IMG/VR virus record: IMGVR_UViG_2563366953_000005
Span: 1-39,664 of that record
Direction: 5' to 3' (one strand)
From: a virus
Taxonomy: Duplodnaviria; Heunggongvirae; Uroviricota; Caudoviricetes
Length of the DNA: 39,664 nt
This document shows positions 23,978-36,869 of this stretch, piece after piece. A program made the position numbers and the translations under genes. The notes below the pieces were generated by a model that was not told the DNA's origin, did no database searches, and saw only the letters and a program-made list of their open reading frames with translations. Position 1 is the stretch's first letter. Every line of letters starts with the position of its first letter.

Positions 23978-24184
23978 TTACTGACCAAGTAGCGTTTTAC
24001 CGCTGGTATTAGCGGTTGATGTGTCGCCCTGAGAACCGGTAAGCAGCGTAGAACTACGACCAGCAGCAGCGCGACGGCGACGTGTTTCTTCGTCGCGGGC
24101 ATCAACAATGACGGCATCCTGCTCCTGTGGTGCTGCCTGAACTTCTGGTGTTGCAGGCACTGATGGTGAGCTACCCATGCACAT
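23978..24184 (-). CDS. Small low-complexity protein upstream of portal
   Basis: 68 aa; its start is preceded by the same 12-nt sequence cggagtcattga found before the portal start, suggesting a genuine translation initiation region; composition is low complexity, so coding status is uncertain. Confidence 0.35.
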   Translation of the reverse strand: MCMGSSPSVPATPEVQAAPQEQDAVIVDARDEETRRRRAAAGRSSTLLTGSQGDTSTANTSGKTLLGQ

Positions 24185-24252: not shown

Positions 24253-24289
24253 TTGACATTTAATGCACTAATTATTACCTTTCAGGTAA
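24253..24289 (+). promoter_or_regulatory. Sigma70-like promoter with overlapping operator
   Basis: TTGACA at 24253-24258; operator-type palindrome TTACCTTTCAGGTAA at 24275-24289 overlapping the -10 region; points toward the tRNA unit. Confidence 0.45.
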
Positions 24290-24611
24290 GCAAAGAGTTC
24301 ATTCCGGTTATTAACCTGACTGGCTTGTCGTTAAATTGAACAGGTGGGGTGAGCTTTTATTTTGAGCAGTACGGTGTATGGCACATGCGCCGATAGCGGT
24401 CTGGATACGTTTAAGGGGCACCCTCCCTTGCTCGGGAAAACGAACCAGGTAGCCGGAATGTGCAAGTCGAGCGGTTTTATTCCGCGCACGGGGATTCACC
24501 ATCCCGGCGATTCGGTGTGACACCTCGGAAGAGACGAGGGTGCAACGATGAGAGCATTTATGGAGCCGCGACAAAGTGTGGTGCCTTAACAGGCTAAGTG
24601 CTCTCAGCGTT

Positions 24612-24688
24612 GTGGCATTAGCTCAGTTGGACAGAGCAACCGCCTTCTAAGCGGTTGGTCGCAGGTTCGAATCCTGCATGCCACGCCA
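24612..24688 (+). tRNA. tRNA-Arg (anticodon UCU)
   Basis: 77 nt; 7-bp acceptor stem GTGGCAT/ATGCCAC, D-arm GCTC-AGTTGGACA-GAGC, anticodon stem ACCGC/GCGGT with loop CTTCTAA (anticodon TCT), T-arm GCAGG-TTCGAAT-CCTGC, discriminator G and encoded CCA. Confidence 0.85.
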
Positions 24689-24731
24689 GAATCACGCCTA
24701 AGGACCGTGATGCCAGAAGTTCCAGGTGCTT

Positions 24732-24775
24732 GGCGGTGATGGTTTCCCTTGAAGGACTATCACCGCCCTTTTTAC
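24732..24775 (+). terminator. Terminator downstream of tRNA-Arg
   Basis: Stem ggcggtgat (24732-24740) pairs with atcaccgcc (24759-24767), followed by cttttt. Confidence 0.55.
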
Positions 24776-24851
24776 AGCAGGACGCCATTGCGATGACTTC
24801 ATGCTGTAAACCAGTACAGCCACGGAAGGCATAACTCATTGCTTCCAGTTC

Positions 24852-24875
24852 GCCCGGTTCGCCGGGCATTTTTTT
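24852..24875 (+). terminator. UUCG-tetraloop hairpin plus T7 tract abutting the RBS of the next gene
   Basis: gcccgg-ttcg-ccgggc then a ttttttt; the SD aaggtgag starts 1 nt after the T tract. Confidence 0.55.
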
Positions 24876-24886
24876 AAGGTGAGATT

Positions 24887-25243
24887 ATGAACGACCAGCA
24901 AATCGAAAAAGAAATCGTTGAGAAAGGCCAAACCGCTCCGCGAGTTACGCCTCAATATATCGAAAGCATCATTCTTGAAGAGCATTTCTTTACTGCTTAT
25001 GACGGCATTCGTGCTGCCAATATGGGCGTTGGCGATTCATGGACAGCGCATAAATCTACAGACCTCCTGACTTTCTGCGTACTGGTGCTGAAGAATGGCT
25101 TCACCGTCACCGGAGAGAGCGCCTGTGCAAGCCCGGAAAACTTTGATGCAGAAATTGGTCGGAAGATTGCCCGGCAGAATGCTGTAAACAAAATCTGGAC
25201 GCTCGAAGGTTACTTGCTGAAGCAGAAGCTAAGCGAGCAATAA
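24887..25243 (+). CDS. Orphan small phage protein of unknown function
   Basis: 118 aa; ATG with strong SD aaggtgag; plus-strand gene between terL and the tRNA, antisense to the late operon; followed by a terminator. Confidence 0.6.
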   Translation: MNDQQIEKEIVEKGQTAPRVTPQYIESIILEEHFFTAYDGIRAANMGVGDSWTAHKSTDLLTFCVLVLKNGFTVTGESACASPENFDAEIGRKIARQNAVNKIWTLEGYLLKQKLSEQ

Positions 25244-31286: not shown

Positions 31287-31363
31287 TTACCTCTGAGGTA
31301 ATTAAAAACCACATAAGACACTAGATCAATAGATTTTAGAATATTTTATTACCCGACAGGTAA
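31287..31363. promoter_or_regulatory. Pair of operator-like palindromes in the P-to-nin intergenic region
   Basis: TTACCTCTGAGGTAA (31287-31301) and TTACCCGACAGGTAA (31349-31363) separated by AT-rich sequence. Confidence 0.45.
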
Positions 31364-31400
31364 TTATTGAGGCGTAAAAAAATGCGCTATCGCGCTGGTA

Positions 31401-33214: not shown

Positions 33215-33293
33215 GGTAAGCCCTGTTATTAGTATTGGGATTACGGTTATTTTGTGCTGACACAAAAAAAAGATCAACCATATTTGGTTTTTA

Positions 33294-33308
33294 TTACCTT
33301 TGAGGTAC
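33294..33308. promoter_or_regulatory. Operator-like palindrome TTACCTTTGAGGTAC
   Basis: One mismatch from TTACC-N5-GGTAA. Confidence 0.4.
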
Positions 33309-33323
33309 GAATAGATATGAAAA

Positions 33324-34333: not shown

Positions 34334-34390
34334 AACTATATTTTTCAGTAAGTAAGCCGCCTCATGGCGGCTTTTTTATTGCCAGATAGA

Positions 34391-34467
34391 TTACCTTACG
34401 GGTAATTTTTTTAACTCATATCTATTGACACCAAACCAAATAAGCATAATTATTACCTCAACGGTAA
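34391..34467 (+). promoter_or_regulatory. PL-like promoter with two operators
   Basis: TTACCTTACGGGTAA (34391-34405), TTGACA (34425-34430), TTACCTCAACGGTAA (34453-34467) overlapping the -10/+1 region; drives the rightward recombination operon. Confidence 0.5.
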
Positions 34468-35846: not shown

Positions 35847-36869
35847 ATGTCTATCAATGCACTTAAGGCAGCGGCTACCGGTAACCAAGTTGCACATCAT
35901 AATGAGAAACCAACAACTCTGGCCGGACTTCTGGCAGACCCAAAAATTAAAGCTCAGATGGCTTTGGCACTTCCAAAGCACATGACAGCAGACCGTCTGG
36001 CGCGCATAGCAACCACAGAGATCCGAAAGGTTCCAAAACTTGCATCATGCGACCAAGCCAGCTTCCTGGGGGCAATTATGCAATGTGCCCAATTGGGTCT
36101 TGAACCAGGCGGAGCTCTTGGACACGCTTACCTGATACCGTTCGACAAACGCCAGAAAGTAAATGGAAGATGGGAAACCGTATCTACAGAAGCACAGCTG
36201 ATTATCGGCTATCGCGGAATGATTGACCTTGCCCGCCGCTCTGGGCAGATCCTGAGTATCTCGGCTCGTACCGTACATACAAACGACAAATTCAGCTACT
36301 CATACGGCCTGGAAGAAACGCTCGAGCATTTACCTTGCGAAACAGGTGACCGCGGAGAATTAACGCACGTTTACGCCGTTGCACGACTGAAAGATGGCGG
36401 AGTCCAATTTGAAGTTATGAGCCGGGCAGACATTGAGAAAGTTCGTGCACTGAGCAAAGCCGGTAGCAGTGGCCCATGGGTTGATCACTTCGATGAGATG
36501 GCTAAAAAAACAGTAATTCGCCGACTATTCAAATATCTTCCTGTTTCTATTGAAATGCAGAAGGCTGTTGTTATGGATGAGCGCGCTGAAGCTGGACTTA
36601 GCCAAGATAACGCAGCTGTTATCACTGGTGAATATTCCGTAGTTGACGATGAGCGTCAACACCTGTCGCCAATTTCAGATTCAGAACGAGAAGAAGCTCG
36701 AGAATATATCATCGCGATACTTAATAGCCTGGATCCATCTGCTGAAGATGCAAAAACGATGTTCAAGCGCGCTGAAAATGAGATTAACACCATGGCTGAA
36801 AAGCTCGGTGATGAATATCACCAAAAATTCATGATGACGCTTAACGATATGCGTCCAGAATTCGAGTAA
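35847..36869 (+). CDS. RecT-family single-strand annealing protein
   Basis: 340 aa; core region LGLEPGGALGHAYLIPF...IIGYRGMIDLARRSGQI typical of RecT/Bet-type recombinases; acidic C-terminal tail. Confidence 0.8.
   Translation: MSINALKAAATGNQVAHHNEKPTTLAGLLADPKIKAQMALALPKHMTADRLARIATTEIRKVPKLASCDQASFLGAIMQCAQLGLEPGGALGHAYLIPFDKRQKVNGRWETVSTEAQLIIGYRGMIDLARRSGQILSISARTVHTNDKFSYSYGLEETLEHLPCETGDRGELTHVYAVARLKDGGVQFEVMSRADIEKVRALSKAGSSGPWVDHFDEMAKKTVIRRLFKYLPVSIEMQKAVVMDERAEAGLSQDNAAVITGEYSVVDDERQHLSPISDSEREEAREYIIAILNSLDPSAEDAKTMFKRAENEINTMAEKLGDEYHQKFMMTLNDMRPEFE

Follow-up and report, generated by a model that had tools for sequence, protein, structure and literature searches.

The interval 24290–24611 of the window, which is the whole 39,664-nt stretch of viral DNA analyzed here, constitutes the 5′ two-thirds of an early transcript, predicted to be non-coding and ~490 nt long, of a phage of the phiV10/epsilon15 type, and its central part belongs to what is, on sequence comparison, a new and very widespread family of structured RNAs of enterobacterial phages. 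The family is new relative to Rfam 15, to RefSeq and GenBank annotation and to the searchable open-access literature. We suggest that this structured RNA is made early, that a neighboring tRNA guides its processing and that it acts in trans on a putative host factor, and we would give this package as a whole a probability of roughly 55%. A first reading of the interval (the original prediction) had proposed a structured non-coding RNA in the form of a leader or of a separate small RNA accompanying the tRNA, and this is supported by our finding that the interval holds a member of a covarying RNA family.

The window is a podophage genome of the phiV10/TL-2011b/epsilon15 type (Uetakevirus) with ~98% identity to several records by BLAST. 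The interval is intergenic, with the leftward gp3–portal operon, which ends at 24184, on one side and a tRNA-Arg(TCT) gene on the other, and it consists of three parts, namely a hairpin module, a pseudoknotted core of 172 nt and a second hairpin module (Table 1).

Table 1. Positions in the window of the predicted early RNA unit and its surroundings.
Feature	Position	Strand	Basis or remark
Early promoter and operator	24253–24290	+	−35 TTGACA 24253–24258; −10 TACCTT 24276–24281
Operator palindrome ATTACCTTTCAGGTAAG	24274–24290	+	overlaps −10
Module 0, long hairpin	24292–24358	+	MFE fold
Module 0 closing helix	AAAGAGTTCATTCC 24292–24305 with GGGGTGAGCTTTT 24346–24358	+	conserved GTCGTTAAAT inside
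Conserved core RNA	24371–24542	+	covariance model R1, 139.9 bits, E = 5e-43
Helix P1	24372–24379 / 24385–24392	+	alignment of 31 representatives
AGCGG	24395–24399	+	core element
Helix P2	24400–24404 / 24445–24449	+	distal part lineage-specific
Invariant block GGTAGCCGGAATGTGCAAG (19-mer)	24448–24466	+	
Helix P3, variable hairpin	~24471–24485	+	
Helix P4	24491–24494 / 24502–24505	+	covarying
H-type pseudoknot	24497–24517	+	P4 loop CACC 24497–24500 with GGTG 24514–24517
Helix P5	24523–24527 / 24535–24539	+	covariation support
Module 1, hairpin	24543–24611	+	closing helix CAACGATGAGAGCA with TGCTCTCAGCGTTG; MFE fold; ends at tRNA base 1
tRNA-Arg (anticodon TCT)	24612–24688	+	ARAGORN; Rfam tRNA 73.3 bits
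Small hairpin ATCACG-N9-CGTGAT	24690–24711	+	in Uetakevirus loci, kept 3′ of the slot for the tRNA or tRNA-like domain
Terminator-type hairpin GGCGGTGATGG...CTATCACCGCC, then CTTTTTAC	24732–24775	+	terminator scan
Second intrinsic terminator	24852–24875	+	terminator scan; directly 5′ of the RBS of gene 24887–25243

We infer that transcription starts at about 24288–24290. The promoter at 24253 was not called by a consensus promoter scan because its −10 element is weak; the combination of TTGACA and palindrome is also kept at other Uetakevirus loci, and the corresponding intergenic region of the epsilon15 record carries an annotated repressor site. The palindrome, ATTACC-N5-GGTAAT, occurs five times in the window where 0.07 occurrences would be expected (7656–7672, 24274–24290, 31348–31364, 33293–33309 and 34390–34406), and these sites are probably the operator set of the phage repressor, marking several early promoters.

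That the interval lacks a credible gene, as first proposed, agrees with what we find. On the plus strand the only open reading frames have 52 aa, starting with TTG, and 45 aa, starting with GTG; on the opposite strand there are two, of 87 and 52 aa; and no frame is open throughout 31 diverse homologues. The core lengths of these homologues cover all three classes modulo 3, with indels that are not multiples of three, and in several family members no frame is open across the whole core. Hypothetical proteins are annotated over the region in some GenBank records, and the unit is mosaic and seemingly mobile between unrelated phages, which could point to a small gene (for instance the 87-aa minus-strand frame), an attachment site or a recombination hotspot. 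Such a protein-coding or DNA-level explanation is scarcely tenable, since no frame is conserved, the helix substitutions are compensatory on one strand, and the element is present in phage P1, which does not integrate. We looked for two outcomes named at the outset as speaking against a functional RNA, namely a lack of conservation and covariation or the presence of a conserved small protein; the homologues gave conservation, covariation and no such protein.

The evidence for structure comes from comparison. We aligned 31 representatives with mutual identity below 93% and built the covariance model R1 on this alignment. R1 finds a single copy of the core in the window and 81 matches in 80 sources, of which 79 are related loci and the other is the window itself. 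The compensatory changes that the original prediction suggested seeking by comparative alignment are there: standard pairs occupy 96% of the cells across the 31 representatives, and 11 of the 30 pairs carry double changes. The covariation score is 0.267 as against 0.117 in shuffled alignments, none of 500 shuffles reaching the observed value, and pairing falls to 26–48% when the strands are slid against each other. An unbiased mutual-information scan of the alignment recovers helices P1, P2, P4 and P5 together with the pseudoknot. When P4 and the pseudoknot were aligned separately, 98.2% of the cells paired and six of the eight pairs were doubly changed, among them three of the four pseudoknot pairs; the lambdoid members have AACC/GGUU in place of CACC/GGUG, and in the Jedunaviruses the pairing has become UUGGUC/GACCAA, fully compensated. 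In all, the core has four or five helices, together with one pseudoknot or more. Between the helices lie the near-invariant stretches AGCGGUC, GGUAGCCGGAAUGUGCAAG and GGCGAU. The helix P1 loop (GCACA) could in addition pair with UGUGC and the helix P2 loop (CUUG) with CAAG, pairings that covariation cannot address because the bases are invariant; the same applies to an RNAalifold alternative pairing GCACAU of the helix P1 loop with AUGUGC, which is neither supported nor excluded since every position is invariant. A weak second match in the window (35959–36091, minus strand, 10.9 bits) we judge spurious, as it lies antisense within a 340-aa open reading frame and the conserved blocks are absent.

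The complementary words on which the original prediction was founded are where it placed them (GCACCCTC at 24418, GAGGGTGC at 24536, CCGGAAT at 24453, ATTCCG at 24479 and GGGA-TTCACCA-TCCC at 24491–24505), but three of the four stems drawn from them are wrong as structure and only the last, which is the true covarying helix P4, is genuine. The long-range pair 24418–24425/24536–24543 uses half of P5 and is incompatible with that covarying helix (24523–24539). A word resembling GCACCCTC, with up to two mismatches, is present in just 24 of 123 scored family members, and in 17 of these 24 the partner reads GAGGGTAC, a break without compensation. The ccggaat/attccg stem joins the invariant block to a lineage-specific hairpin and is missing from other lineages, while ggtgt-g-acacc would have a loop of 1 nt and is sterically impossible; its GGTG pairs instead with the P4 loop CACC, and CCTCG is part of P5. 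Of the other checks proposed at that time, folding of the single sequence was only modestly better than for shuffles (z = −2.75, as against −1.66 for the minus strand), and a covariance-model search of 24290–24611 against Rfam with Infernal gave no match at the gathering score or at E ≤ 10.

The hairpins on either side of the core also show compensatory changes. Module 0 is homologous to a hairpin annotated in the epsilon15 record as an RNase III site, and its helix is kept by compensatory changes, epsilon15 having AAAGCGCGATTC/GGAGTGCGCTTT. For module 1, at least 10 compensated variants of the closing helix (CAACGAUGAGAGCA/UGCUCUCAGCGUUG) occur across loci. The interior of the module varies freely, in some cases with T-arm-like hairpins. 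The terminator-type hairpin at 24732–24775 is kept in Uetakevirus and lambdoid units, with covarying stems (GGCGGTACCAG/CTGGTACCGCC, and GGCGGTGGCAG with its partner), and the RNA unit probably ends there. Gene 24887–25243, which follows the second terminator, belongs to the N4 gp49/Sf6 gp66 family (Pfam PF13876, 3.9e-34). A block ACGCCATTGCGATGAC...GCTGTAAACC after the terminator hairpin (window 24782–24815) is conserved across the Uetakeviruses and is kept even in a locus (L012) where a gene has been inserted before it.

The position between module 1 and the terminator hairpin is occupied in relatives either by a tRNA-Arg or by domains that start with GUGG and end with CCAC. The latter have an acceptor-like stem of 6–7 bp, a D-like hairpin 2–3 nt further on and a T-like hairpin that abuts the 3′ strand, and their loops are mutually complementary (GCUGA with UCAGC). 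From this layout and from MFE folds we regard these domains as tRNA-like; covariation gives no support here because the acceptor stem is nearly invariant. In 24 of 123 distinct units module 1 is followed by tRNA-Arg and in 76 by a GTGG domain, together 100 of 123, and in phage P1 a tRNA-Ile(CAU) is instead found 14 nt upstream. A true tRNA is nearby in roughly 40% of the loci, restricted to two lineages, and the remaining ~60% are without one. The proposal that the RNA is made together with the tRNA holds insofar as the 3′ module ends exactly at base 1 of the tRNA, but the link to a tRNA is lineage-specific and does not define the family. We also considered an ordinary tRNA precursor leader, which would be short, unconserved and removed by RNase P, and rejected it: the RNA upstream of the tRNA is 320 nt long, is conserved and covaries, and is also found where there is no tRNA.

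The annotated RNase III site in epsilon15, and the way the transcript is punctuated by hairpin modules and by tRNA or tRNA-like domains, would also be expected if the unit were a scaffold for processing and stability only, where conserved RNase III and RNase P sites serve to mature the tRNA and the early mRNAs and the RNA itself does nothing further. The constraint seen in the core, with its covarying pseudoknot and its near-invariant blocks outside the helices, goes far beyond that of a cleavage site, the core is without a tRNA in ~60% of loci and it is also found as a stand-alone gene, which leaves the scaffold explanation distinctly unlikely.

Sensitive BLAST searches showed that parts of the interval are 70–85% identical to unrelated phages, including lambdoid and Stx2 prophages (mEp460, cdtI, Stx2c and Stx2a phages), phages P1, P7, D6 and SJ46, Klebsiella and Enterobacter phages, and Jedunaviruses of ~48 kb. 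Exact matches to the invariant 19-mer are present in IMG/VR, in at least 120 contigs, and in a collection with one genome per species, in 24 genome stretches that come nearly all from species of Enterobacteriaceae. The element is found in 1836 of 5426 complete E. coli genomes, 554 places being on P1-like plasmids, and all loci examined were phage or prophage. Among the matches listed, no RefSeq feature lies under the element in the E. coli genomes. In 20 related loci, Rfam 15 gave no match on the element or its modules at gathering or at permissive thresholds, and its hits elsewhere in the window and these loci were confined to tRNA, C4, isrK, STnc100 and int-alpA. The C4 antisense RNA and isrK matches fall in the Rha antirepressor region of lambdoid prophages that carry the RNA (L003 206–394, L004 275–463, L005 208–396 and L159 1704–1889); both families are known and have no relation to the element. 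We found no description in the searchable open-access literature, and an older account in a subscription journal is possible. The core is a member of a large phage RNA family that has gone unannotated, and the unit appears to be a cassette that passes between unrelated phages.

In the CPS-53 prophage of E. coli K-12 the RNA has been deleted together with the whole immunity region (L163, MG1655, 4248–4604), and the match to the lambdoid leader is limited to the last ~35 nt before yfdP. The absence of the RNA may explain why sRNA surveys based on K-12 missed the family. In epsilon15 (L002 2453–2640, compared with 24292–24775 of the window) module 0 and the helix P1 hairpin are kept, with nothing more of the core and no tRNA; the junction looks like the product of a deletion between two similar GGTTCCCTTGA-containing hairpins, namely distal P2 and the terminator hairpin. 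As both epsilon15 and CPS-53 are without the RNA, it must be dispensable.

The surroundings of the unit differ between phage groups. In temperate phages the RNA lies directly 3′ of a repressor-controlled early promoter: in lambdoid prophages the order is cI, a terminator, a strong operator-bearing promoter, the unit and then yfdP–yfdQ–yfdR, so that the unit occupies the pL/nutL position; in the Uetakeviruses it follows an operator-bearing promoter; and in phage P1 the core is within the C1-controlled ban operon. In phage P1 and some prophages the core occurs alone, directly upstream of a gene. In some phages the full unit extends to ~500–900 nt. The Jedunavirus copies lie between baseplate genes (L161, KpV79, 2963–3218; L162, ZCEC13, 2999–3250), antisense to the surrounding baseplate and tail genes, with a promoter of their own (TTGACA-17-AATTAT) and a strong GC-rich terminator with a T10 tract. 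The ZCEC13 copy has an extra module with an identical ACAACAGGTAAGAGCA/TGCTCTTTCCTGTTGT closing helix, and its GenBank record annotates several tiny hypothetical proteins over the RNA. The common denominator across these contexts would be an RNA product made early from host-type promoters, and because the Jedunavirus copy stands alone and antisense between its own promoter and terminator, we favor a trans-acting product over a cis-acting leader or antiterminator.

The arrangement in temperate phages nevertheless invites comparison with the put sites of HK022, in that the nascent core might bind RNA polymerase and allow read-through into the early genes. The lambdoid unit sits downstream of cI, immediately after an operator-controlled early-left promoter and upstream of terminators, and the lambdoid operons begin with yfdP, no N-like gene standing at their start. 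Two terminator hairpins separate the RNA from gene 24887 in the window, where no promoter was found between them, and in BUCT711 the terminator hairpin is immediately followed by the start of a gene. There is no homology to put, as no R1 score in the immunity region of HK022 exceeds 5.6 bits; the RNA is two to three times larger than put, and each immunity region has one copy with no partner on the pR side. A boxA of the rrn/lambda type is near the element in a single case (L092) and is not a feature of the family. Further, a tRNA between core and terminator would let RNase P sever the tether, and some Uetakeviruses have no downstream plus-strand gene, the first long open reading frame past the unit being a minus-strand one of ~490 aa, which we take to be the terminase. 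Most decisively, the stand-alone, antisense Jedunavirus copy has nothing downstream to antiterminate. We therefore consider processive antitermination unlikely as a role of the family in general.

The compact pseudoknotted fold with highly conserved junction nucleotides, and the terminator hairpin downstream in many units, could also be read as signs of ligand binding, the RNA being a riboswitch or else a free aptamer that acts as a sponge for a small molecule, for example a nucleotide signal. The core is separated from the terminator by variable modules and an entire tRNA, no competing expression platform is obvious, the Rfam riboswitch models gave no match, and the Jedunavirus gene controls nothing downstream, for which reasons we hold this to be very unlikely.

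We return to an early RNA acting in trans. In the course of events that we propose, the RNA would be made only upon infection or induction, and the tRNA, or the tRNA-like domain in relatives, would serve as a built-in processing signal. Cleavage by RNase P at 24611/24612 would release an upstream RNA of ~320 nt or shorter, module 1 would protect the 3′-end of the released RNA, and the hairpin modules might be cut further by RNase III. The released core would then act in trans as a stable early RNA, binding a putative host factor conserved in Enterobacteriaceae in the service of host take-over or counter-defence. We count against this package that in temperate phages the unit always precedes early genes as a leader, separated from them by terminators, an arrangement that fits a cis role as well, and that in phage P1 and some prophages a lone core stands just 5′ of a gene. 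The window beyond the interval shows 10- to 12-mer complementarity to the RNA at the level expected from shuffled sequence; a protein target is by this neither supported nor excluded.

A bolder and, in our judgment, rather unlikely reading is that the RNA represents a new functional class that works in the first minutes of infection, as a high-affinity decoy or sponge, or as a self-assembling "ornate" RNA with a tRNA or tRNA-like cargo. The target of a decoy would be a host immune or RNA-metabolism factor or a nucleotide immune signal. If true, phage P1, the Stx phages and the Klebsiella phages of the type used therapeutically would have in common an RNA-only device for counter-defence or take-over.

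Several known RNAs resemble the family in part, and the core is a member of none of the systems with which we compared it. In its behavior it is most like ROOL and GOLLD, being phage-borne, modular, structured and tRNA-adjacent in roughly 40% of loci. ROOL and GOLLD are multi-domain, strongly structured phage-borne RNAs that are often found beside tRNAs or contain them, and their function is not known (PMC12286853; PMC5737381). They show no covariance-model similarity to our family, they occur in Lactobacillales or in rumen and lake samples whereas this family is found in Enterobacteriaceae, and the conserved core here is only ~125–175 nt. Self-assembly into homo-oligomeric RNA cages is a further trait of the ROOL/GOLLD type. 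Likeness can also be seen to the stable RNAs of tRNA operons, with a stable structured RNA, co-transcription with a tRNA and presumed release by tRNA-processing enzymes. The T4 stable RNAs species 1 and 2 (rnaC/rnaD) are made from the tRNA gene cluster of that phage, and the E. coli RtT RNA derives from tyrT. RtT shows no similarity by Rfam, the T4 RNAs are likened to the element by description only, and this family, unlike these RNAs, is mostly tRNA-free.

RNase P is known to define RNA ends in MALAT1/mascRNA, in the C4 RNA of phage P1 and in the CI RNA of P4, and by analogy the tRNA or tRNA-like fold directly 3′ of the element would let RNase P make its 3′-end; the C4 model matches elsewhere in the same prophages, off the element. 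The bacterial Y RNAs of the YrlA type share conserved closing helices and variable inserts with T-arm-like hairpins or tRNA-like domains, but no Rfam match connects the two, the pseudoknotted conserved core found here is absent from Y RNAs, and the annotated neighborhoods that we inspected contain no Rsr/Ro60 gene.

If our conclusions hold up, this would be among the commonest structured RNAs in the phage genomes of E. coli and Klebsiella, and one that is unannotated although carried by phage P1, by Shiga-toxin prophages and in one third of complete E. coli genomes. Early repressor-controlled expression, a pseudoknotted core and tRNA-like appendages would point to a new RNA-based function in infection. 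We point out that the element is an easily mutated target, both in model phages (P1 and phiV10 among them) and in those Jedunaviruses that were isolated against Klebsiella, and that a covariance model would improve the annotation of thousands of genomes.

The number and surroundings of the copies vary in some contigs. One IMG/VR prophage contig (L030) has two copies of the core, at 3997–4153 and 4804–4958, both on the minus strand and ~650 nt apart. Where the locus is of the type seen in Stenotrophomonas phage BUCT708, the RNA is flanked on either side by long non-coding sequence in which a GGAAAGACC motif is repeated many times (L007 2290–2440 and 2700–3100, and likewise L080).
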